16,880 nt of DNA, from NCBI GenBank assembly GCA_964244895.1, contig CAXTKV010000113.1:1-16880 (forward strand). Reading direction: 5' to 3'. How positions within the stretch are numbered: position 1 is the first letter of the stretch; each line of letters begins with the position of its first letter. The stretch comes from an uncultured Deinococcales bacterium. Lineage in GTDB: Bacteria > Deinococcota > Deinococci > Deinococcales > JAAFIG01. The translations under genes were made by a program, and so were the position numbers. The notes under the pieces are model-generated. The model was not told the origin of the DNA and made no database searches. It worked only from the letters and a program-made list of their open reading frames with translations. This document shows, in pieces, positions 3,249-13,754 of this stretch.

Positions 3249-3575
3249 GCCTCTGTCTCTAACCATTAAGGCCAGCCTGCGCGTCCGCGCCCATTCCACC
3301 TCGAGCCATCAACGCGATCCCGCGCGTCTGCCACGGTCTTGTGACAACACTTACGAGCTTTCCAGATTGACCGATCTTAGAAGCACGCCCACCCCGCTTG
3401 ATCTGAGATTGATGAACCCTTCTTCAGGAACGCTCAGAACGACACCGTGTGGAACGCAGCGAAACACGAGGGCGCTGTCCCATACGGCGTTTCTTGAGGC
3501 AAGACATGCGCACGAGCAGTTTGATGGTTCAAGCTCGAGCATCAGCCTCAAGGTGACGAGAGCTTAATAGCGTTT

Positions 3576-3623
3576 AAAAACAAAAAAACAGTGGAGCTTG
3601 GTAAAATACCAAGACATCCACTG
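3576..3623 (-). terminator. Rho-independent terminator downstream of the orphan membrane gene
   Basis: Plus strand CAGTGGA-G-CTTGGTA-AAA-TACCAAG-ACA-TCCACTG (3589-3623) forms a bulged stem; on the minus strand it is followed by TTTTTTTGTTTTT. Confidence 0.7.
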
Positions 3624-3666
3624 CACTCATCTCACGAAGCTAAAAGCTAGGTTGATGAGCTAAAAC

Positions 3667-4080
3667 CTATCCCTCCCAACGGAGATTTCCTGCAATGTAA
3701 ATTGCGAGGACTGCCACTGCAAGTGACAGGAGATAGGGCCAGTTGGACAAATTCCGATCAAGGTGCCACTCGAGAAACGGAGGCTGAAACTTGACGCGGA
3801 AAACCAACTGGGAACACACATTGTACATGACCAACGCTAAAATTAACGTTGGGCCTGCAAGCAGGTTGACATGGCCAAGCGTATTCTTTGTTGCTAGCAC
3901 ATACGCAAGATAGAACAGAACCATATGGCTCACAGAACTCGCAACGTTCCCAATAAGGAATAGTTGCCAGCTGAAATAATTCAGCTGCTCCTGCGAACGT
4001 ATCGCCAGGAAAAGCACCAACGAGCCGGTTTCCGTGGAAACCTTTAAGCCCTGCAATAGGTTGAAAACGAATTTGCTCAT
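3667..4080 (-). CDS. Hypothetical integral membrane protein (~137 aa, about 3-4 hydrophobic segments)
   Basis: Hydrophobic stretches FSWQLFLIGNVASSVSHMVLFYLAYVLA, LLAGPTLILALVMYNV and WPYLLSLAVAVLAIYIAG. AT-richer than its flanks and followed by its own terminator. Start uncertain (ATG 4080 or 4146). Confidence 0.6.
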   Translation of the reverse strand: MSKFVFNLLQGLKVSTETGSLVLFLAIRSQEQLNYFSWQLFLIGNVASSVSHMVLFYLAYVLATKNTLGHVNLLAGPTLILALVMYNVCSQLVFRVKFQPPFLEWHLDRNLSNWPYLLSLAVAVLAIYIAGNLRWEG

Positions 4081-4249: not shown

Positions 4250-4297
4250 GAACACCGTCCAGCACACAAATACAAATATGTGTGCTGGACGGTGTTC
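4250..4297. repeat. Perfect 19-bp inverted repeat made of two copies of the GTGCTGGACGGT motif
   Basis: GAACACCGTCCAGCACACA (4250-4268), 10-nt loop, TGTGTGCTGGACGGTGTTC (4279-4297). Confidence 0.9.
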
Positions 4298-4475
4298 TCG
4301 ACCATTCGCCATTCGTGGCATAGGGCAAACTCGAGCCTTCAGGCAGAGCCAGAACGCGCGTCGTTGCCCAAGCGTCGTGGGGTTCGAGCGGTCGGGAAGG
4401 TGGGTTTCTCAAGATCATCTCGTCGGACAAGCCTTCAGCTTCGCTCGAGGCTCAAATGCATCTGGATGTCTCGAT

Positions 4476-4505
4476 GTTGTTCGTTGATGTGATACTTTGG
4501 TACAG
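4476..4505 (+). promoter_or_regulatory. Putative promoter/operator of deoR-pfkB
   Basis: Extended -10 TGaTACTTT at 4490-4498. The 30-mer matches the minus-strand box at 3211-3240 at 23/30 positions. Confidence 0.6.
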
Positions 4506-4522
4506 TTGAACACAACTCATTG

Positions 4523-4545
4523 TGTGACGCCAACCGAGCGTCACA
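4523..4545. repeat. 8-bp inverted repeat in the deoR leader
   Basis: TGTGACGC-N7-GCGTCACA lies between the putative -10 and the GGAGG RBS (4564-4568). Confidence 0.5.
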
Positions 4546-4573
4546 TTGATCGGCTTAAGACACGGAGGTCAGG

Positions 4574-5443
4574 GTGCTCGCACACGTTCGACATCAGTTG
4601 ATACTGGACTTGCTCAAACGCGACCAGTCCGTCACAAACGTGGAAATCGCGGAATCCATCGGGGTCTCCGCCATGACCATCCGGCGCGACCTGGTGCAAC
4701 TGGAACAACAGGGCTTGCTCAGGCGCGTCTACGGCGGGGCGCAGAACATCACGGAACTGGATGTCGGCTACGCGCAGCGCGCCAGGCGCGAGCATCAGGC
4801 CAAAGCCATGATCGGCGCGATGGCCGCCGAGCGCATTCAGGACAACGAAACCATTTACCTGGACGGCGGCACGACCGTGATCGAAATCGCGCGCGCCCTG
4901 CGGCGGCGCGGGGCGCGCAACGTCCACCTGTTCACGCACGCGATCAACATTTCCAACGAACTGATCGGCGTGCCCGACATTCAGGTCTACCAGATGCCCG
5001 GTCAGATGTACCGCGAAAGCTACAGCGCGGTCGGCCCGTTGACGCTCGAGACCATCCGCAGGTTTCGCTTCGACCGCCTGTTCCTGGCAGCCCAGGGGTT
5101 CGACGCGGAGGGCCTGACCAACCCGAACCTCCTGGAGGTCGAGGTCAAGCAGGCGCTGATTGACCGTTCCGCCTGGGTCTGCCTGGTGGCGGACGGAACC
5201 AAATGGGGCAAGTCGGCTTTTGCGCGAGTCGCCCCACTCACCGCACTGCACGCGATCATCACCGATTCGCGCATTCCACCGACGGGCATCGCGACGCTCG
5301 AGAAATCGGGGTTGAACGTGATGATCACCGATCTGAACGCGCAAACACTTCCCAAAGGAGCGCTCAACAGCAGAGCGCTACGGGTATCGAACCGGGCGGA
5401 AGCGAAGGCGATCGACCCGCGACGCAAGGGAGGCCACGAATGA
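4574..5443 (+). CDS. DeoR/GlpR-family transcriptional regulator
   Basis: HTH signature VSAMTIRRDLVQLEQQGLLRRVYGGA; sensor domain with K..IG..AA, IYLDGGTT, FDRLFLAAQG and LVADGTKWGK. GTG start with GGAGG RBS. Confidence 0.95.
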   Translation: MLAHVRHQLILDLLKRDQSVTNVEIAESIGVSAMTIRRDLVQLEQQGLLRRVYGGAQNITELDVGYAQRARREHQAKAMIGAMAAERIQDNETIYLDGGTTVIEIARALRRRGARNVHLFTHAINISNELIGVPDIQVYQMPGQMYRESYSAVGPLTLETIRRFRFDRLFLAAQGFDAEGLTNPNLLEVEVKQALIDRSAWVCLVADGTKWGKSAFARVAPLTALHAIITDSRIPPTGIATLEKSGLNVMITDLNAQTLPKGALNSRALRVSNRAEAKAIDPRRKGGHE

Positions 5444-6387
5444 AATCCGTTGATGTCGTCTGCGTCGGCAATCTCGTCGCTGACGTGATCGTCAAACCGG
5501 TCAACACCTTGCCACCGAGCGGAGAACTGCGGTTGGTTGACTCCATCGATTTGCGAGCGGGCGGCTGCGCGCTCACCACAGCCATCGGTCTGGCGCAACT
5601 CGGGGCGAGCGTGATCATGGCAGGATTCGTGGGCGACGACCCATTTGGGCGGTTCCTGGAAGAACAACTGGATGCGGCTGGGGTCGATCCGCGCCGCCCT
5701 GGACGACACCCGAATCTTCCCACCTCGACGACCGCGGTGCTGGACGGTGATTCCGGCGAACACGTCTTGTTGCACACGACGGGCGCGACCGCCGGTCTGA
5801 CGCGAGATTCGATACCGGATGAAATGCTGTTCGCGGGTCGGGCGCTGCACATCGCCGGAGCCGGGATCAATCCTGGTCTGGATGGTCAACCCACCGCCGA
5901 ACTGCTCGCGGAAGCCCAGGCTCGAGGCATCCTCACCAGCCTCGACACCGCTTTCGACTCGACGAATCGTTGGGAACGAGTTCACGCGGCTCTACCGCAC
6001 CTGGACGTGTTCTCCCCGAGTCTTTCTGAGGTTCGACCCATTTCTGGGTTGCACGCACCGGAGGACATCGCGGCCTGGGCTCGAGATCGCGGTGTGAAAA
6101 CCGTGATCATCAAGCAAGGTGGTGACGGGGCGTTCGTCTCGAGCGATGCCTTTAGCGGCCACATCCCCGCGCATCGCGTACCGGTTCTGGACACCACCGG
6201 CGCGGGCGAAAGCTTCAACGCTGGAGTCCTTTACGGCCTGACCCGAGATTGGTCTCTTCAAGATTCGTTGTTGATGGGTGCAGCCATGGGCGCACTGGCC
6301 GTCACCAGAATTGGCGCAGTTGATCGCCTGACCAACCTCGATCAGGTACTTCAGATGGCTGGGCTAAAACTGGCGCACCACGCTTGA
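5440..6387 (+). CDS. PfkB/ribokinase-family carbohydrate kinase (atypical active site)
   Basis: Starts MKSVDVVCVGNLVADV at ATG 5440 (ATGA overlap with deoR, GGAGG RBS). Motifs AGG, GFVGDDPFG, VIIKQGGDGA and the C-terminal VLDTTGAGESFNAG. Confidence 0.92.
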   Translation: MKSVDVVCVGNLVADVIVKPVNTLPPSGELRLVDSIDLRAGGCALTTAIGLAQLGASVIMAGFVGDDPFGRFLEEQLDAAGVDPRRPGRHPNLPTSTTAVLDGDSGEHVLLHTTGATAGLTRDSIPDEMLFAGRALHIAGAGINPGLDGQPTAELLAEAQARGILTSLDTAFDSTNRWERVHAALPHLDVFSPSLSEVRPISGLHAPEDIAAWARDRGVKTVIIKQGGDGAFVSSDAFSGHIPAHRVPVLDTTGAGESFNAGVLYGLTRDWSLQDSLLMGAAMGALAVTRIGAVDRLTNLDQVLQMAGLKLAHHA

Positions 6388-6527
6388 TCGGGCTAGCCAT
6401 CGAAGGGCGCTGAGTCGTTGCAATGTTGTTGCAATCGCGTTCAGTTTGTCTGATCGACCTCAGCGCAGCAACCCAATTCGGGTTGGGTACGGGCTGGATC
6501 GAAAAGCTCCAGGAACTGCTTTCAACC

Positions 6528-6560
6528 AACGCAAACGCTCGCGCAGACATCGCGCGAGCG
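6528..6560 (-). terminator. Probable terminator of the minus-strand block
   Basis: 9-bp GC stem CGCTCGCGC (6536-6544) / GCGCGAGCG (6552-6560), 7-nt loop, followed on the minus strand by a weak U tract (TTTGCGTT). Lies 20 bp past the stop at 6581. Confidence 0.55.
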
Positions 6561-6580
6561 AGTGGGAGGGGTGGGAAAGC

Positions 6581-7666
6581 TTAAGCGACAGCTTCGGCGG
6601 GCATTCTGGAGGGCTTGGAGCGCTTGTCCTCGACCTTCTGACCATCACCTGTGATCAATTCAGGCTGGTAACCGACGGGGCCGCGATCGTTCGATCCCAG
6701 ACGGCAGCGCACGCGTTGGTTGACGGTCTGGTTTTCACCGTTCAAGCCGATCACGAACAGGTTGTGTTCGAGGTTGTTCTGGCATTCGAGCTTGATGAAA
6801 CCCCAACCTTTCGTGCCGATGCGGGTCAGGCGGCCTTCGGCGGTCGCGTCGAGCACGAACACGTCTTCGGCGCGTTTTTCTTTGGTGTTGCGGATCGGCG
6901 GTAGGGCGTGGAACAGCACACGCGCGCCGCGTTTGAGGGCGGCCTGGACGACCAGGTTGCGGGATTGGAAGTAGTACAGTTCGCCCGCGTCGTCGCTGAT
7001 GAAACCGAACTTCGGGCCGATTCTCGAGATCACGCCTTTGCGCCACTCGGCGGGATTCAGGTCAGCGGTGGGCGTTTCGGCGTGCATGGCGCTGATGAAG
7101 GCGGCGCGAATGCCGAAGGCTTCTTCAGCCCAGACCAGTTCGTGGTACGTGATGGCTTCGGCGCGTTCGGTCAGTCGGATGGTTTGGGCATCGCCGAGAG
7201 GCGATTCTCTGGTCGCGTCGATCTCGAGGCGGGCGAGCGCGGCAGCTTGCGCGGTCGCGGCATCCATCAGGATCGCGCGGGCGTTGGCGGCGCGGCTGAG
7301 TTGCGCAGCCTGTTCCAGAGGTGAGCCCAGGTAATCGGTTCCGCGTTCTGGCGTTTCAAACCAGGTCAACGCGCCCGAGGCGATGCCCGCACCGAAACGC
7401 AGCCCGTGTTCTTTGGCGTGCGTTTGCGCGCGGATGGCGGCGTTGATGGCTTCGGTGGCGTGCGCCGGGTCGTAGGCGATGAAGATGCTGCGGTCGGCGT
7501 GCTTGAGGATGTCCCCACCGATTTCTGCGGTGGACTCGAGCACCAAGTCGTAAAGCTTCGCGAGAGACACATCATTTGGGTTGCCGGGAGCGTCCGTCAG
7601 GTTCAGCGCGACGATGGTTTTGCGAACCTGGAACTGCGGGTCGGCGGTGATCTGGCTGAGTTTCAT
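6581..7666 (-). CDS. Degenerate class III nucleotidyl-cyclase-like domain fused to two cold-shock (OB-fold) domains
   Basis: N-half follows the cyclase pattern: TIVALNLTD, GGDILKHADRSIFIAY, RFGAGIASG, DYLGSPLEQAAQL..AANARAILMD. C-half has two RNP1-like motifs, KGVISRIGPKFGFISDDAGELYYF and EGRLTRIGTKGWGFI...HNLFV. Strong RBS AGGAGG. Confidence 0.75.
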   Translation of the reverse strand: MKLSQITADPQFQVRKTIVALNLTDAPGNPNDVSLAKLYDLVLESTAEIGGDILKHADRSIFIAYDPAHATEAINAAIRAQTHAKEHGLRFGAGIASGALTWFETPERGTDYLGSPLEQAAQLSRAANARAILMDAATAQAAALARLEIDATRESPLGDAQTIRLTERAEAITYHELVWAEEAFGIRAAFISAMHAETPTADLNPAEWRKGVISRIGPKFGFISDDAGELYYFQSRNLVVQAALKRGARVLFHALPPIRNTKEKRAEDVFVLDATAEGRLTRIGTKGWGFIKLECQNNLEHNLFVIGLNGENQTVNQRVRCRLGSNDRGPVGYQPELITGDGQKVEDKRSKPSRMPAEAVA

Positions 7667-7710
7667 TTGAACCTCCTGTGATTTACCGAATCGGCTCTAG
7701 GCTGCGTGGG

Positions 7711-7764
7711 ACACCGTCCTGGACGGCATATTCATAAGGTTAGAATTCGCGTGCTGGACGGTCT
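7711..7764. repeat. Inverted pair of the 12-mer motif between sodC and the cyclase-like gene
   Basis: ACCGTCCTGGAC (7713-7724) and exact GTGCTGGACGGT (7751-7762), with 36 bp between the ACCGTCC and GGACGGT cores. Confidence 0.7.
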
Positions 7765-8340
7765 TTACCTCGAGTAGATCGCGCCGCAAGCCAGGCGAGC
7801 GCCGCTGCCACCCAACGCCGGAGTGTTCGTGTAGTTGTCCTCGTTGGCGTGAATCACGACCGCGCCACCTATGACGGACAACGGGCCGCTGGCGACCGTC
7901 AGTTTCTTGGTGGTGAATTCCAGCGAACCGTGGCCGTTGGCGGCGACCACCAGGTTCGGGAAGTCGCCCGCGTGACCCTCTTTTTCGCTCACCAGCGGCC
8001 CACCGTGGCTGTTGGTGTTCATCGGGTCGAAGTGCGCGCCCGCACCGCCGAATTTGACGGTGTTGCCGTTTGCGTCCGGGGCGTCCGCGCACGATGACTT
8101 GCCGTGGATGTGAACGCCGTGCTTGCCGGGCGTCAGGCCGCTCAGGGTGCGCACGGTGATGCGCGTGCCATCTGCGACCTCGGTGAAGCGAGCGACACCG
8201 ATTGCTTTGCCGCTCGCGTCCTTGATGACGGCGCTGGTGGTCTTGGCGGCGGACTGTGCGCTGGGTGCGCTGACGAGCAGCGCGATGCCGAGCGCGGCGA
8301 GGGTGGCGGTGACGGTCAGACGTGCGTTGAAGCTGTTCAC
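7765..8340 (-). CDS. sodC: Cu/Zn superoxide dismutase, exported
   Basis: All ligand motifs present: HGVHIH, GAHFDP, HGGP, GHAGD, VVIH, plus catalytic Arg and Cys in ARLACG and a partner Cys in SSC. N-terminal signal peptide. GTG start at 8340 with AGGAGG RBS. Confidence 0.94.
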   Translation of the reverse strand: MNSFNARLTVTATLAALGIALLVSAPSAQSAAKTTSAVIKDASGKAIGVARFTEVADGTRITVRTLSGLTPGKHGVHIHGKSSCADAPDANGNTVKFGGAGAHFDPMNTNSHGGPLVSEKEGHAGDFPNLVVAANGHGSLEFTTKKLTVASGPLSVIGGAVVIHANEDNYTNTPALGGSGARLACGAIYSR

Positions 8341-8416
8341 AAAAACCTCCTGTGGCCTTACCGCAGGCAGCTTAGGCGAGGTGCGCAACCATCAGGGTTG
8401 CCAGTTCACTTTGGGT

Positions 8417-10933
8417 TTATTTCTTGGCAACCTGCGGCGCACCGATGCGCGGTGGACGGACTGGTACCGAAAGCGCTTCCTGAATTTGCGCGCCGATTGG
8501 CTCGAGTTTCGCGGGTTGCGCTGGCTCGAGCGGTGGGGGTTGGCGCTCAGGTACAGCTTTGGGCTCGAGCTTTTCGGGAGGCTGCGATTCGAGGATCGGT
8601 TCGGGCTCGAGCGCAAACGTGCGTGCGACTGGTTTGGCTTCGCGCTCATCAGATTTTGGAGCTTCGGGGCGTTGGGCTTCGGGGCGTTGGGGTTTCAGGT
8701 TGCCGCTCGGGGCTTTGCTGGCTTGAGCAGGCTTGGCTTCACGGCGTTGCGGGGCGGGGCGGTTCTGGCTGGTTTTGGGGGCGCTGGACGCATCATTGCT
8801 GGGTGCGTCTCTCTTGGAGTCTGAGCGCGTGGCTTGCTTGGCCAGTACCGCCCAGAATTTCGTCAACCGGCTCAGCCCGAGGTGCGGGATCAGCAGGCGC
8901 TCACCGTCCGCGATCCAGCCTTTCTCGACCCATTGCGCCAGATCAGCCGGGATGGTCTCGAGCGCGCCCCGTTCGATACCGACCATGACGGGCTTGTCGC
9001 CGTCCATCTCGAGGCTCATGGTGACGTTGCGCTCGACCAGTCCGCCGAACCACGAGCGGAAACTCTCCGCGAACGGGTTCGGGGCGTTCTGCGCGGGCGC
9101 AGACGGCGCGTGGCTCGAGTCTGCCGGGTCGTTGAAGGTGGGAGCAGTGGCGGGATCGGGTTCGGCCATCACGCCAGGTTTGCGCAACTGCGGCGTCTGG
9201 TAGGTTTTCTTGATCTTGGCGTAGACGTTGGAGTACGGGTTCTGCGCCTGATCCAATCGGGGCATTTCAACTTTGGCGGGCGGCGCGCCGATGGTTTCAA
9301 TCACCGCGAAGCCATCGGGGAAGGTGCGCATGGCCTCGGCGGACAGCAGGAAGCGTTTGACTTCCTTGATGGATTGCGTGCGTTTGACCTCACCGAACGC
9401 ATCCGCCATCACGACGTTACCGGTCATGGCGTAGGTCGAACTGGCTTCAGCCACGGTGGTTTCGCCGAAGTTCTCGGCGAAATACTTTGCGTCCTCGAGC
9501 CGCAAGCTGCGCGGGAACACGACCATCTGCGCGAAATTGTTGTTGATCATGCCCGCGAAGGCCTCGCGCCCGTAAAGCGCCTGTCCCTGCGCCAGGTTCT
9601 GCATGGCGATGTGGTACGCGACCCGCCTGGAACGCATGGTCGCCAGGTTCTCAGCGATGTTCGGAATCGGGCCGAACGAGGGAAACTCGTCCAGGTAAAT
9701 CGAAAGGTGAACCGGCAAGCGCCCATCGTTCTGCGCGCAGACGTTCAGAATGGATTGATCCAGCACGCGCTTGATCAAGCGCAACAAGACCTGACCCTGA
9801 CCGCCCTGAATTTCTTCTTGCGGCATCCCAATGTACAAGAAGCTCGGGCGCTGGCAGACGGTATCCAGATCCAGGATCTGCCCCGGCCCGGCGCTGGTCG
9901 CGCGGTTCAGGTTCGGGTTCAAGAAGGGTTGCAGATCGCCCATCAACCCCGTGGCGATGCCCGTCAGCATGCTCTTGTTCAGTTCCAGCAGCGTTCCCAG
10001 GATCGGCTTGAGAAACGCCCTCGCGCTGACGTACTTGATCAGATCGTCCGTGCCGCCGCCCAGCAACTGGTAGATGCGGTACATCGAAGGTTCGGGTTCC
10101 TGGCTGACCGCCAGCACCAATCCGGCCAGCAACTGTCGTTCGTTGTTCTTGTAAAAAGACGCGTCCGATTCCTCGCCGCCCGCTGGTCGGAACGCCCCGG
10201 CGACATCCATCGCGTCCTGAATGGTTTTCACACCAGCCAGCAACGGGATGCGCACCGATCCAGGATCGAACGGCGTGAACGGATGCACGTGTCGGCCCCA
10301 GGCTTTGAAGTAATTGATGCACTCCAGAAAGCCGCTGCGCGGATCCGGGTATTTCAGGTCGAACACGACCGCGCTGACGCCATCCTTGGCGTCCATCAGC
10401 AAGTTCGGGTTGACGTAGCGCGTCGTCTTACCCGCGCCCGTACCGCCGATGATCAGCGTGTGCGCGCAACGCATGTTTTCCGGCGGTCGAATCACGTACT
10501 TGCTCTCGAGCAAGCCTAGGTAGCCCACGCGCGGCGAGCCTTTGGGCGCGTCCAGCAGGTACGGCTCGAGATCCTTCTTGTTCGCCCATCGCGCCTCGCC
10601 TGGGTCTTTGCGCGGCGCTTGATTGCGCAGGTAACGCGCCAGGAACAGCGACAAGATCGGCACGAGCGGAATGAAAAATAAAGTTGTCGGCATGCTCTGC
10701 GCCCAGACCTGATTCAAAGGCTGGTTGCATTTGGTGTCCATCGAGCATTTCAACAAGAACGTCTGTCCCGGTTTGGTATTCAGGTATTTTGCCCAGCCTT
10801 TGGCCGCCACCCGATCCGCCGCGACATTCAACGAATTCCAGCCCATCCAGCCCAGAAACGCGATCGACGCGATCAGCGCCAGGCCAGAAATCCAGGTCAT
10901 GGCCACCAGAGATGGTTTATTGCGGTTGATCAT
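8417..10933 (-). CDS. virD4: Type IV coupling protein (VirD4/TraG/TraD family)
   Basis: Two N-terminal TM helices, PGEARWA motif, Walker A HTLIIGGTGAGKT, FDLK, Walker B IYLDEFP, MRSRRV and QNLAQ...YG. Long Pro/Ala/Glu-rich C-terminal extension. Confidence 0.93.
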   Translation of the reverse strand: MINRNKPSLVAMTWISGLALIASIAFLGWMGWNSLNVAADRVAAKGWAKYLNTKPGQTFLLKCSMDTKCNQPLNQVWAQSMPTTLFFIPLVPILSLFLARYLRNQAPRKDPGEARWANKKDLEPYLLDAPKGSPRVGYLGLLESKYVIRPPENMRCAHTLIIGGTGAGKTTRYVNPNLLMDAKDGVSAVVFDLKYPDPRSGFLECINYFKAWGRHVHPFTPFDPGSVRIPLLAGVKTIQDAMDVAGAFRPAGGEESDASFYKNNERQLLAGLVLAVSQEPEPSMYRIYQLLGGGTDDLIKYVSARAFLKPILGTLLELNKSMLTGIATGLMGDLQPFLNPNLNRATSAGPGQILDLDTVCQRPSFLYIGMPQEEIQGGQGQVLLRLIKRVLDQSILNVCAQNDGRLPVHLSIYLDEFPSFGPIPNIAENLATMRSRRVAYHIAMQNLAQGQALYGREAFAGMINNNFAQMVVFPRSLRLEDAKYFAENFGETTVAEASSTYAMTGNVVMADAFGEVKRTQSIKEVKRFLLSAEAMRTFPDGFAVIETIGAPPAKVEMPRLDQAQNPYSNVYAKIKKTYQTPQLRKPGVMAEPDPATAPTFNDPADSSHAPSAPAQNAPNPFAESFRSWFGGLVERNVTMSLEMDGDKPVMVGIERGALETIPADLAQWVEKGWIADGERLLIPHLGLSRLTKFWAVLAKQATRSDSKRDAPSNDASSAPKTSQNRPAPQRREAKPAQASKAPSGNLKPQRPEAQRPEAPKSDEREAKPVARTFALEPEPILESQPPEKLEPKAVPERQPPPLEPAQPAKLEPIGAQIQEALSVPVRPPRIGAPQVAKK
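8661..8690. repeat. 15-bp exact tandem duplication in the virD4 tail (encodes QRPEA x2)
   Basis: GCTTCGGGGCGTTGG at 8661-8675 and 8676-8690. Confidence 0.85.
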
Positions 10934-11047
10934 TGAACCCCCTCGGGTGCGTCGTGGATCGAGAAGTCAGAGCAGTGTGAAAGGGAGTCGTCCGAACGCG
11001 GCGGTACGCGCGGCGCGAGCGGGTACTCGAGGCATTAAATTTCTAAA

Positions 11048-11103
11048 AACACCGTCCCAGACGCAATTTTTTGATTTCAAAAAACCTCGTGCAGGACGGT
11101 GTT
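11048..11103. repeat. 56-bp imperfect palindrome between virB6 and virD4
   Basis: Outer arms AACACCGTCC (11048-11057) / GGACGGTGTT (11094-11103) and inner arms TTTTTTGA (11067-11074) / TCAAAAAA (11077-11084) share one centre. Confidence 0.85.
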
Positions 11104-11158
11104 CCATGTTTCAGCGAGTCTTCGTAAATGTTTTAAACGACACCGACGTTTTGGAACA

Positions 11159-12742
11159 CTAAAGCCCAATGGGAGCCAACACAACTACAGCAGTCTCGGC
11201 AACTTCAGCCGCCGTAACACCCTCAGCCGCCGCGCCTCCGGCTTCAGCCGCTCCAGCAGATGCACCGCTCGAACCTCCGGCACTGCTGGAGGCACCACCG
11301 CCAGAACCACCCATCGGCGACCTGGGCGTTGGGCCGCCATTCGCGTAACTGGCCCACTCCTGATCTTCTGCAGCAGTATCGGCATTAATGATTTGTTGAG
11401 CCTCTGCATCTGACATACCGCCACCGCTTGGGCTCGAGCCATCACCCCCACCGCCTGGATTTGTACCACCGCCACCACCGGGTGTAGAAGATGAACTGCC
11501 ACCACCAAAGAAGGAACCCGCCGTTGCGGCAGCCCCACCAGCCAAAGCGAGTCCAGCACCGCCGACGCCCGCAAAGGCACCACCAGCGCCCGCTTTCCCA
11601 CCACCGCCAACGATGCTACCGATGAATGCTTGAATCTGCGCCTGGGCAGCAGCAACAAACATGACTGCAAAAGCAATACCGACGAACAGCATGACGATTG
11701 ACGCGATCATGCCAAAAAGAAGCGTTGTAGCAGAGCCAGCCAAATCACCAACAGCACCAGTAGCATTGCCATAAAAATTCTTGATGTAATCTAGTGCTTG
11801 AGTAGGATTTCCGTTCGGAATGAGCGCATTTAGCTTTTGAAAACTCGAGTTTAGCTGCGTTGCCGCACCATCTAAAGCCGTATTGAATCTTTTTGCAGGC
11901 TCAATAAATCCAATTGTCATTGCAGCGACGTAGGCAATCGGGTGAAGTAAAACTATAAGTATGGCGGCACTAGCGCTCTTGAGCCAGGTAGCGAACCAGC
12001 TTTGAAGCGCATTGCCTGGAAAAATAAGAAGTACGCCAGCCAGGGGAATAACGAGCGAAGCAATAATTATTGCAAATCCACTCAAAATAACCACAAGATA
12101 TTCTACAGTCACAATAAGACTGACACTCAAAACTACGTATTTAACGAGTTCAAATATCTGACTGGCGTTATTTCGTACTCCTATTCCTGCATCTTTTGTA
12201 GCTTCATCGAAATCCTTACCAGCTGCAACATGAGCGATCTCTGTTACGATTGGTGCTCCTATGTATACGACACTTAATCCTGCCATTGTAACGTTTAGGG
12301 CGGTAAGTTGATTTATTGCATCATCAGTTACTGTTTTTGAAAGATTATCGTGTCCCCATTGATAACATGCCGTCCACTCATCTCGAAGCAACTGTCCCAT
12401 CCAAGGACCAGAAAGTACGAGTGCGCCTGCAATCAACGAACGGACGAGAAATCCCTGAATTTCAACTGTTCCCCCGAGTGTGACTATTCGCAAACCGCTC
12501 CAGATAATGCCAGTGAGTAGCAAAGCGGCGCTGAACGCTTCAATATATTTACTTAATTGAGCTTTTTCAACAGTTTGCCAAATGGTATTAAGCCATTTTG
12601 CTGGATCAACTATCACTCCAGAAACAAAATCCATCAGCCAGGAGCCAAATCCAGGATCTTGAGTAGCAGCAAAAGCAGAGCCCGATAAAGCGCAAAGGCT
12701 TAAGGAGGTCACGATAAAAATCTTCGAATATTTTTTTCGCAT
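11159..12742 (-). CDS. VirB6/TrbL-like polytopic membrane protein of the T4SS
   Basis: Signal-like N-terminus, multiple TM helices (including FAIIIASLVIPLAGVLLIFP...SWFATWLK) and a long Gly/Ser/Ala-rich C-tail as in TrbL. Located between the VirB5-like gene and virD4. Start ATG 12742 or GTG 12751. Confidence 0.75.
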   Translation of the reverse strand: MRKKYSKIFIVTSLSLCALSGSAFAATQDPGFGSWLMDFVSGVIVDPAKWLNTIWQTVEKAQLSKYIEAFSAALLLTGIIWSGLRIVTLGGTVEIQGFLVRSLIAGALVLSGPWMGQLLRDEWTACYQWGHDNLSKTVTDDAINQLTALNVTMAGLSVVYIGAPIVTEIAHVAAGKDFDEATKDAGIGVRNNASQIFELVKYVVLSVSLIVTVEYLVVILSGFAIIIASLVIPLAGVLLIFPGNALQSWFATWLKSASAAILIVLLHPIAYVAAMTIGFIEPAKRFNTALDGAATQLNSSFQKLNALIPNGNPTQALDYIKNFYGNATGAVGDLAGSATTLLFGMIASIVMLFVGIAFAVMFVAAAQAQIQAFIGSIVGGGGKAGAGGAFAGVGGAGLALAGGAAATAGSFFGGGSSSSTPGGGGGTNPGGGGDGSSPSGGGMSDAEAQQIINADTAAEDQEWASYANGGPTPRSPMGGSGGGASSSAGGSSGASAGAAEAGGAAAEGVTAAEVAETAVVVLAPIGL

Positions 12743-12803
12743 ATTCACCACCCATTCATGACAGACTTTTTACGAGAGCTTTTGGTTTAGGTTAAAGGTA
12801 GAT

Positions 12804-13754
12804 TCAAGGAATAGTCGATAAATTTATTGTCGAATTTGATGCAGCCGAGATACTAGCGCTAGTTGATGTAAAGTAAGTACTTACATTCCCAGAAACAGTT
12901 TTTGCAAATTGCTGCATTTCATCAAGTCTAGCTTGACCACCAGCACCTTTTTGCTGCATTTCTTGATACTTCATACTTACAAGATGACTGATCTGCTGGG
13001 TCGTAAGGGCTTGCTGCTGAACAGAAGATGCAATCAACGATGTCAGATTCAAGTTATTTGACATAACGTGATCGAGGGTCTTAACAAGAATTTCATTGGT
13101 TATTCCAATTGTTGCTCGAGTTGAAACTGCTAGTTCGGATTCTTGAAGTAGTTTTGCACCATCGTCGCTCGCAGTCACAGCCCTGTCCGTCGCTGATTGT
13201 ACCGCTTGCGTTCCATTACTCGTAGCAAGAACAGCTGCAGCGTTAACGCCAGCAGCCGAGTTAACCAAACCTTTCGCAGCATCGGCGTTTATTGCCAGAC
13301 CGATAGCTTGGCCAGTGTCAGTTCCCGGATTTCCTGATGGATTTCCTGTTATTGATTGAATTCCAGTAGAGAAAGATGCGTTGATTATAGCATCAGCAGC
13401 ATTTTTACTATCGTTCACATCGGACGCAGATTTATTTTTAGAAAAGATGTCGTCGAACTTAAGCGCACCCATCGCAAATTTTGTTCCATTATCCAGCAAA
13501 CTGAGTAAATCGCCGCCGCGAGAAATTCCCTCCGCCGCTTTCGCCATGTCGTTGATTGCCGGCGAAACCTCAGCCAGCGTGTCGCAGTACGGGATTTTAT
13601 TTCCGGTAACCGTACCTGCAATCTTGCAAATTTGAGCCAGAACCGTCAGCACCTGATTTACATCTTTTGCGCTCAAACTCAGAGCGGATGCGCTCGAGCT
13701 GAAGGTCAGCGTCAACGCCAGGGCCAGCGCGATCATCGGTCTTGAATTCTTCAT
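12804..13754 (-). CDS. Exported helical protein, VirB5/TrbJ-like (minor pilin candidate)
   Basis: Real start is ATG 13754 (ATGA overlap with the virB4 stop): signal peptide MKNSRPMIALALALTLTFSSSASA, a Cys pair, and a Gln/Ala-rich helical C-half (QQQALTTQQISHL). Family assigned from position and composition only. Confidence 0.6.
   Translation of the reverse strand: MKNSRPMIALALALTLTFSSSASALSLSAKDVNQVLTVLAQICKIAGTVTGNKIPYCDTLAEVSPAINDMAKAAEGISRGGDLLSLLDNGTKFAMGALKFDDIFSKNKSASDVNDSKNAADAIINASFSTGIQSITGNPSGNPGTDTGQAIGLAINADAAKGLVNSAAGVNAAAVLATSNGTQAVQSATDRAVTASDDGAKLLQESELAVSTRATIGITNEILVKTLDHVMSNNLNLTSLIASSVQQQALTTQQISHLVSMKYQEMQQKGAGGQARLDEMQQFAKTVSGNVSTYFTSTSASISAASNSTINLSTIP

Follow-up and report, generated by a model that had tools for sequence, protein, structure and literature searches.

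The 16,880-nt stretch of DNA analyzed here (the window) is contig CAXTKV010000113.1 of an uncultured Deinococcales bacterium (C113 of the 5.12-Mb, 328-contig, 91% complete assembly GCA_964244895.1, hereafter G000), and it carries copies of a paired palindromic element that occurs 2,045 times in this genome. An NCBIfam match agrees with the Deinococcota label of the assembly. The element consists of two inverted arms held at one of two main lengths, is found about once per intergenic gap at an even spacing, is flanked by helically phased A/T tracts, occurs in frame within essential genes, and is restricted to one lineage; the REP-associated tyrosine transposase (RAYT) of the genome is tied to another repeat. 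The element lacks certain defining features of REPINs (hairpin-forming doublets of repetitive extragenic palindromes [REPs]), DNA uptake sequences (DUS), miniature inverted-repeat transposable elements (MITEs), or intrinsic terminators, and works partly like REPIN doublets, bacterial interspersed mosaic elements (BIME-2), uptake signal sequences (USS), and the highly iterated palindrome HIP1. The explanation we favor, with middling confidence, is that protein binds these sites and that they organize the chromosome, having spread by copy-in and been maintained by selection; they would be evenly spaced duplex cassettes that dock a multimeric DNA-bending protein.

The initial annotation of the window described a recurrent nonpalindromic 12-mer at seven sites, all of which were recovered. 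Four are exact, those at 11089-11100 and 7713-7724 carry one and two mismatches, respectively, and that at 11051-11062 was confirmed by direct reading. Allowing up to two mismatches, the 12-mer matched the window eight times against a shuffle mean of 1.66, and none of 200 shuffles reached eight. The genome holds 964 exact copies, compared with Markov expectations of 18 (order 4), 104 (order 6), and 511 (order 8, a value inflated by the motif's own copies), and the 12-mer with its overlaps occupies the whole list of the 30 most frequent 12-mers. The real unit, however, is not the 12-mer but a quasi-palindromic arm of ∼21 bp deployed in inverted pairs. Each arm is a dyad whose strong outer half (ACCGTC) follows AA and whose weaker inner half precedes TT, with three free bases separating the halves. 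Inverted pairs accounted for 882 of the 964 exact 12-mers (91.5%), and the 2,045 pairs identified with an iterated matrix compare with a single pair in the reversed genome. Perfect dyads standing alone numbered 142.

Distances between inward-facing ACCGTC/GACGGT hexamers peaked at 15 (n = 251), 40/41 (n = 606 and 80), and 50/51 (n = 322 and 122), with 0 to 4 occurrences at each distance from 43 to 48. Lengths of 40, 41, 50, or 51 bp were found for 1,875 of the 2,045 pairs, and a further 76 were one base off. Minor half-turn classes were seen at 44 to 46 bp (n = 32) and 55 to 57 bp (n = 45), and five pairs measured 43, 47, 48, 53, or 54 bp. The two main classes differ by one helical turn, with arm centers 25 to 26 or 35 to 36 bp apart. 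The initial annotation was right in proposing a repeat not described before that occurs throughout the genome and is spaced by helical turns, and the dimer-type protein that it also proposed fits the pair geometry. The three spacings reported (26, 36, and 36 bp) are correct between the inner ends of ACCGTCC/GGACGGT heptamers, but not as gaps between 12-mers, which are 16, 26, and 26 bp; the outer lengths are 40, 50, and 50 bp.

Each element holds 57 bits of information, fading outward, and together the elements cover 116 kb. Pairwise identity is 76 to 81% between arms, compared with 45 to 46% between spacers, and 907 of the 908 copies of the 40-bp class and all copies of the 41-, 50-, and 51-bp classes are unique. 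Nearest-neighbor distances between copies were barely below those of column shuffles. Paralogous segments sharing 68% identity have retained the element in both. The densest arm cluster of the genome (L081:4060-4160; G000 C2:29060-29160) contains three same-direction arms ∼35 and 49 bp apart and lies upstream of an unannotated 146-amino-acid (aa) gene.

Relative to our own calls of 4,527 genes (81% coding), the pairs were located in co-directional (n = 1,162), convergent (n = 437), and divergent (n = 257) gaps, inside genes (n = 57), overlapping gene ends (n = 65), and at contig ends (n = 67). Occupancy among gaps of at least 50 bp was 419/574 (convergent), 1,142/2,095 (co-directional), and 247/628 (divergent). 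The median distances of the elements were 24 nt past a stop codon and 105 nt ahead of a start codon. Only 44 of the 964 exact 12-mers (4.6%) fell within called genes. The number of pairs and the preference for convergent over divergent gaps exclude the promoter operator that had been put forward as an alternative. Nine contigs (277 kb in total) are poor in elements, with 0.47 per 10 kb compared to 4.19 elsewhere; the four that were annotated carry IS5/IS630 insertion sequences (IS), sugar islands, and CRISPR I-C, BREX, and PRTRC genes, whereas rpoD, gyrB, mdh, and folP were found on element-rich contigs. One element-poor contig also carries a flavin monooxygenase gene (L040:11977-13185) with a match to the Tet(X) model below the cutoff.

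Approximately one element was present per gap, almost whatever the gap length: co-directional gaps of 150 to 500 bp held 0, 1, or 2 elements in 379, 694, and 20 cases, respectively. A lone arm was found in 276 of 955 element-free gaps compared with 79 of 1,414 occupied gaps. Spacing was examined using 2,330 gaps of 70 to 600 bp on contigs of at least 10 kb, with the nine poor contigs left out, against two null models and 500 permutations. The median distance between elements was 1,988 bp, and by four measures the elements were more evenly spaced than in all 500 permutations of both nulls; distances of <900 bp made up a fraction of 0.080 (0.150 to 0.156 in the nulls) and those of >4 kb a fraction of 0.130 (0.152 to 0.162). 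Neighboring gaps separated by a confident gene of ≤450 bp showed mutual exclusion (odds ratio, 0.28; P = 2.5e−5), an effect not significant across longer genes. Gap occupancy climbed from 0.46 to 0.75 with the length of the flanking genes in all three orientation classes, whereas occupancy by the GTAG REPs of this genome (described below) was flat.

Elements also occur within coding sequences, and there they lie far from other copies. Across 2.9 Mb of coding DNA, 83 arms of at least 20 bits and 20 pairs were found inside confident genes, compared with 13 to 27 arms and 2 to 4 pairs in five codon-Markov controls. Strong lone arms in genes (33 of 44 scorable) lay 1,264 bp from other elements, compared with 669 bp for random coding positions (P = 1e−5), and the 18 scorable in-gene pairs lay 1,405 bp away, compared with 684 bp (P = 8.5e−5). 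Thirty-six pairs are inside long genes; 19 such genes were annotated, and seven were aligned with relatives. In CopA, the element forms a clean 17-codon insertion (∼50 bp) relative to all five family orthologs, and the insert is present in all three homologs at 75 to 78% identity, with arm residues kept and the middle variable. By contrast with this clean insertion, PheT and penicillin amidase are colinear with their relatives; PurD differs by one codon, and Nqo3 and an LpxD-like protein differ by three to eight, while MetH and other linker sites were uninformative. Both PurD arm peptides were found in four homologs at 83 to 89% identity, one arm in six at 71 to 76%, and none in four outgroups at 50 to 58%, with R/S/L variation as the DNA motif permits, a distribution that, from peptides only, could represent stepwise buildup of the element. 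Three of eight PheT homologs at 80 to 88% identity (P0128, P0129, and P0131 compared with L126, residues 60 to 77) have 13 additional residues inserted where the left arm lies, and this insert reads like a further partial element and suggests that copy-in events may have continued. In several relatives, PheT is also longer near residue 460.

The paired pattern was matched 411 times in G000 and not once in the 363 other phylum members scanned, 18 of which belong to the family, and no analogous repeat was seen in 37- to 180-kb samples of five relatives. Taken with the homologs above, the system is old within a clade for which this genome is the sole GTDB representative. Strict paired patterns gave no matches in GTDB, JGI metagenomes, or IMG/VR, nor did BLASTN searches of plasmids, although this genome and very near ones may lie outside these sets. 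Thirty metagenome loci of a neighboring gene (33 to 61% identity) contained no arm, a viral scan with a PurD homolog returned distant matches only, and an RNA ligase had no ortholog in 120 other genomes. In sequencing run X1, contigs of a relative at ∼90 to 94% identity aligned through four elements with six or fewer gap letters; at two other elements, 59 and 32 contigs had loose ends, and no alignment was obtained for a fifth gap, which is of similar length. From runs X2 and X3 came only pieces that were short or divergent. A literature search by repeat families, not by sequence, found nothing matching for RIB/BIME-1 or for phased palindromic sites in the thousands.

In the flanks, A/T dinucleotides recur in a fixed phase with the element, at a period of 11.2 to 11.4 bp, to ∼85 bp on each side, the signal fading by 105 to 125 bp. 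The amplitude was 16, compared to 4.8 in a two-tract control and <8 in the null, and the phasing was three to four times stronger than in two anchored controls. It was present in coding and noncoding flanks and in both length classes. Synonymous recoding of 809 coding flanks lowered the amplitude from 15.9 to 6.7 ± 1.5, so over half of it rests on synonymous codon choice. We infer that the flanks bear the pattern expected of a protein that bends or wraps the DNA (compare PMC6379681 and PMC4132750). BIME-2 and other strong gyrase sites of Escherichia coli (Topo-seq motif) are described as intergenic, downstream of genes, and possessing periodic flanks around a center of 36 to 50 bp (PMC6379681), all of which the element shares. 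The Mu SGS is another gyrase-type strong site of this kind. It differs from the published motif in its sequence-specific center (57 bits), its longer period (11.2 to 11.4 compared with ∼10 to 10.7 bp), and the extent of its flanks (∼85 compared with ∼47 bp).

Several of these traits are known from transformation signals. The element could be a DUS- or USS-like signal for which a multimeric uptake or transfer receptor prefers paired-site fragments, with molecular drive and recombination spreading sites evenly through the core genome; we regard this as unlikely. The ∼2-kb spacing, the scarcity on accessory contigs, the absence of strand bias (485 versus 479 exact 12-mers), a copy number of a thousand or more, in-place gain within essential genes, and the presence of ComEC would all fit, as would the phased A/T tracts, which are also reported for the USS (PMC3458573). 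According to PMC2397512, Neisseria DUS clusters lie ∼1.5 kb apart, are missing from recent genes, and in many cases originate through recombination; even spacing, core-genome bias, and gain in place within genes are DUS traits too. However, the DUS of Neisseria and the USS of Pasteurellaceae are nonpalindromic and mostly single, with values of 35 to 70% coding and ∼10% inverted given for them in PMC1939737 and PMC2346458, and the 4.6% coding and 91.5% paired copies found here weaken the uptake reading of the initial annotation. The arms are dyads at a rigid partner distance (a dyad of dyads), whereas a single DUS is described as enough for uptake (PMC2397512). Coding DNA accommodates lone arms readily, but no more than the 83 strong ones were found there. 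No match to ComP (PF16732) was obtained, with a model that was also silent in all 14 control genomes and so had no positive control, and the samples of five relatives contained no analogous dialect. Uptake or transfer drive would account for how the sites are spaced and for their bias to the core genome, but it would explain neither why pairing is so rigid nor why single copies are nearly lacking in coding DNA.

It is doubtful, but somewhat plausible, that the element is an old REP/REPIN- or MITE-like nonautonomous element with a hairpin that either works at the RNA level (protecting 3′ ends or controlling translation) or is idle, its evenness coming from insertion immunity or scarce safe space. 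Like the REPs and REPINs described in PMC3733652 and PMC3116915, it occurs as inverted doublets at preferred distances, has extragenic copies that run into the hundreds and favor the 3′ ends of genes near stop codons (convergent over co-directional over divergent gaps), is lineage-specific, and is occasionally in frame. The clean CopA insertion, the PheT insert, one intergenic gap ∼150 bp longer than in relatives, the weak spacer consensus, and the strong possible hairpins are also consistent with such an origin. Against it, no stem-loop with an unpaired GTAG/CGTC foot tag is present; CGTC lies within the dyad, the center is of 3 nt, and the commonest arm is mismatched (compare PMC3733652). 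There is no master sequence, no G·U bias on the transcribed strand, and no shared spacer, the 45 to 46% identity contrasting with 79% between linkers of the genome's own GTAG REPIN, which serves as an in-genome control for a replicating repeat. The doublets are under-dispersed, whereas REPIN doublets are reported as close to random (PMC3116915), their lengths lie one helical turn apart, and they outnumber by 6 to 20 times the 91 to 323 copies given for enterobacterial REPIN populations (PMC8049555). The PheT arms are also kept in place without an indel. An old REPIN or MITE with RNA effects would explain the position and the insertions, but not the phase rule, the unique spacers, or the in-place conservation.

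The RAYT that the initial annotation had suggested looking for is present but belongs elsewhere. An intact RAYT-like gene (G000 C12:40619-41188; L114:3619-4188) was found by tblastn with proteins of relatives, and the absence first indicated by Pfam was a false negative (PF01797 missed the gene, and its NF047646 match of 52 bits is under the cutoff of 80). Two inverted GTAG REPs of a separate family, with 106 copies in the genome, lie inside its reading frame, and the nearest paired elements are one gene away. No cognate RAYT flanked by the element was found, although a second RAYT could be absent from the 91% complete assembly. Y1 transposases are present in 16 of 18 relatives without the element. 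The in-genome control comprises, besides these REPs and the RAYT-like gene, a composite repeat of ∼140 bp (G000 C45:12825-12960 and 47 others) whose 48 copies are 85 to 96% identical, with an internal GTAG REP doublet and terminal inverted repeats, often with TA at the left; 21 of the 48 lie ≤60 bp from a paired element. A second repeat family, of ∼125 bp (G000 C3:2632-2758 and 10 others), has two palindromes and an inner part in either orientation.

MITEs and in-frame palindromic elements such as Correia and RPE, like the element, are short and lineage-specific, with inverted ends and some in-frame insertions. Unlike MITEs, the element has no sharp ends, as its information fades outward, no conserved interior, and no target site duplication of 2 to 8 bp at any of 12 offsets. 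CTCGAG was considered as a target duplication and rejected, being present on both sides 11 times against ∼31 expected. No cognate transposase was found; inspection of N-terminal sequences at 16 facing lone-arm pairs, which did not extend to all IS families, gave no evident transposase, and the assembly contained no match to TnpB and 11 matches to tyrosine recombinases. Integron attC sites end in AAC...GTT, and a likeness to these was dropped because complementarity between the arms is complete even over what would be the unpaired spacer, and no cassette arrays were seen. The Deinococcus SNRs, at 60 to 215 bp (PMC11276467), were compared with the element by description, not by sequence.

That the elements are intrinsic terminators acting in both directions, or that they serve a single global dimeric regulator as operators, is most improbable. 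Elements are enriched directly past stop codons and in convergent gaps, and winged-helix operators have dyad symmetry with A/T outer flanks, which the arms resemble. However, a hairpin followed by a U-tract and oriented with transcription was not found: there is no U-tract, the flanks are symmetrical on both strands, no orientation bias relative to transcription exists, and none of the three main window pairs was among 10 terminator-like matches. Rfam gave no match in the window at the gathering score. Against operators, the sites number 2,045 and are least frequent in the divergent promoter gaps, and in-frame copies within essential genes speak against either role. RNA pairing was considered by length class. 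The 50-bp class showed no arm-to-arm covariation at variable positions 6 to 9, and real elements folded at −25.7 kcal/mol compared with −26.4 kcal/mol for re-paired arms. The sense strand was no more stable than the antisense strand, and G·T did not exceed A·C on it (1,246 versus 1,347). As far as can be judged from the sequences, the element is not kept for RNA pairing, and in the 50-bp class pairing is not what is conserved.

The docking of a multimeric protein on duplex DNA remains the explanation we favor. In it, two 21-bp dyads, 25 to 26 or 35 to 36 bp apart, form a lineage-specific cassette that would be double-stranded when docking a multimeric protein (predicted to be a dimer of dimers). 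The docked protein would likely bend or wrap the DNA over ∼200 bp where genes end, and the bent or wrapped sites would likely organize the supercoiled chromosome; binding, wrapping, and a role in topology or packaging are all deduced from sequence features. Recombination would have introduced the copies, in some cases by a clean insertion of ∼50 bp (CopA) and in others by overwriting what was already there while altering the length slightly or not at all (PheT, PurD, and penicillin amidase). Selection would then keep the arms and their spacing while the spacers drift.

A number of observations weigh against this explanation. Uptake drive or transposition target immunity would likewise lead to even spacing and to the filling of gaps. 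The binding protein was not found: GyrA is ordinary, with no extra domain, and the three HU paralogs (G000 C103, C117, and C10) look ordinary. A codon-bias ranking for it gave no candidate, no ribosomal reference set having been recovered, and the genes beside the two densest arm clusters encode an aldo-keto reductase, a SpoIID-like protein, a DNA ligase, and two unannotated proteins. Any two arms can pair, giving possible transcript hairpins with medians of about −28 and −25 kcal/mol, and the median position of 24 nt past the stop codon is that of REPs. In the 40-bp class, modest arm covariation was seen at two positions (0.50 versus 0.36 and 0.57 versus 0.43), and real elements folded better than re-paired arms (−27.9 versus −26.5 kcal/mol). 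This covariation and advantage of 1.4 kcal/mol fit either template-switch correction or weak selection on a hairpin, and an RNA side effect of the hairpins is likely. Approximately 40% of the coding-flank periodicity outlasts synonymous recoding, and a weak periodicity of ∼11 bp is described as general in bacteria (PMC4132750). The conservation of in-frame arms in relatives was read from peptides, not DNA, and our gene calls missed low-GC genes.

The window holds three strong pairs. The first (4250..4297; 40-bp class, core 4254-4293, arm centers 25 bp apart) scored 27.8 and 29.4 bits, is foldable (−38.1 kcal/mol), and lies in the divergent gap between a low-GC open reading frame (ORF) and, to its right, a DeoR-family regulator gene (4574..5443, plus strand; PF00455 and PF08220). 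The second (7709..7767; 50-bp class, core 7713-7762, centers 35 bp apart; 19.8 and 25.2 bits) has a weak fold (z, −2.0) and a partially self-palindromic left arm. A Cu/Zn superoxide dismutase gene (7765..8340, minus strand; PF00080) ends at this element, its stop codon (7765-7767) being inside the outer flank. The third (11047..11104; 50-bp class, core 11051-11100; 26.1 and 22.4 bits) is located between the end of a virB6-like gene, 59 bp past the stop at 11159, and the start of the downstream VirD4-type coupling protein gene (8417..10933, minus strand; PF02534); the orthologous gap in three family relatives is 60 to 75 bp and contains no arm. All three pairs had been placed upstream of minus-strand genes, but two of them are equally at the 3′ end of the preceding gene. 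The lone exact 12-mer in frame in pfkB (5737..5748, plus strand; VLDG) is present as described; as a weak arm (14.2 bits) whose best partner scores 0.8 bits, it is on its own indistinguishable from chance, and lone arms in coding DNA show a three- to sixfold excess genome-wide. New to this analysis are a weak pair of the minor 45-bp class (3444..3488; 13.4 and 10.0 bits, barely above the pair threshold) and a lone arm within virD4 (10212..10231, minus strand; 16.4 bits). The interpretation given in the initial annotation is partly supported.

VirD4 has orthologs at 56 to 63% identity in four relatives and a distant paralog on contig C190. Low-GC patches (0.40 to 0.47 compared with 0.60) cover positions 12001-13500, with the virB6-like gene and a neighboring type IV secretion system gene, and 3501-4000, with the small ORF left of the first element. 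A 361-aa protein encoded at 6581-7666 on the minus strand has no Pfam or NCBIfam match; the two GWGFI/FGFI-type segments in its C-terminal half may resemble cold-shock folds.

HIP1 of cyanobacteria is likewise very abundant, selected, and nonrandomly spaced, with a proposed role in chromosome structure (PMC5861425). It is an 8-bp palindrome, and its closer counterpart here is a family-wide excess of CTCGAG rather than the 50- to 60-bp cassette. In each of the six genomes of the family that were sampled (G000 as a whole; G001 and G003 to G006 as samples), CTCGAG occurs 4.3 to 6.7 times per kb, whereas base composition predicts 0.2 to 0.3; it is found at fixed registers in and beside elements, and this HIP1-like excess is older than the element.

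The usual objections to REPs, DUS/USS, and HIP1 as chromosome organizers, as given in PMC1939737, are uneven spacing and the lack of an intracellular partner. In this genome, even spacing, one-turn length classes, phased flanks, and gap filling inside essential genes occur all together, next to an ordinary RAYT/REPIN family as an in-genome control, and the chromosome-organizing question is therefore testable. We tentatively propose that a lattice encoded in the sequence may extend across the core chromosome. It would be built from ∼2,000 double sites in helical phase, at intervals of ∼2 kb, and each site would position a nucleoprotein unit of ∼200 bp that is wrapped or looped. Just as tentatively, sites would have been written into essential proteins where gaps were too long, and a once-mobile cassette may have given rise to a nucleosome-positioning-like code within one genus-level clade. 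If the lattice exists, it would be a recently evolved, sequence-specific chromosome architecture; if the element instead serves uptake, it would be a new kind of uptake signal outside the Proteobacteria.

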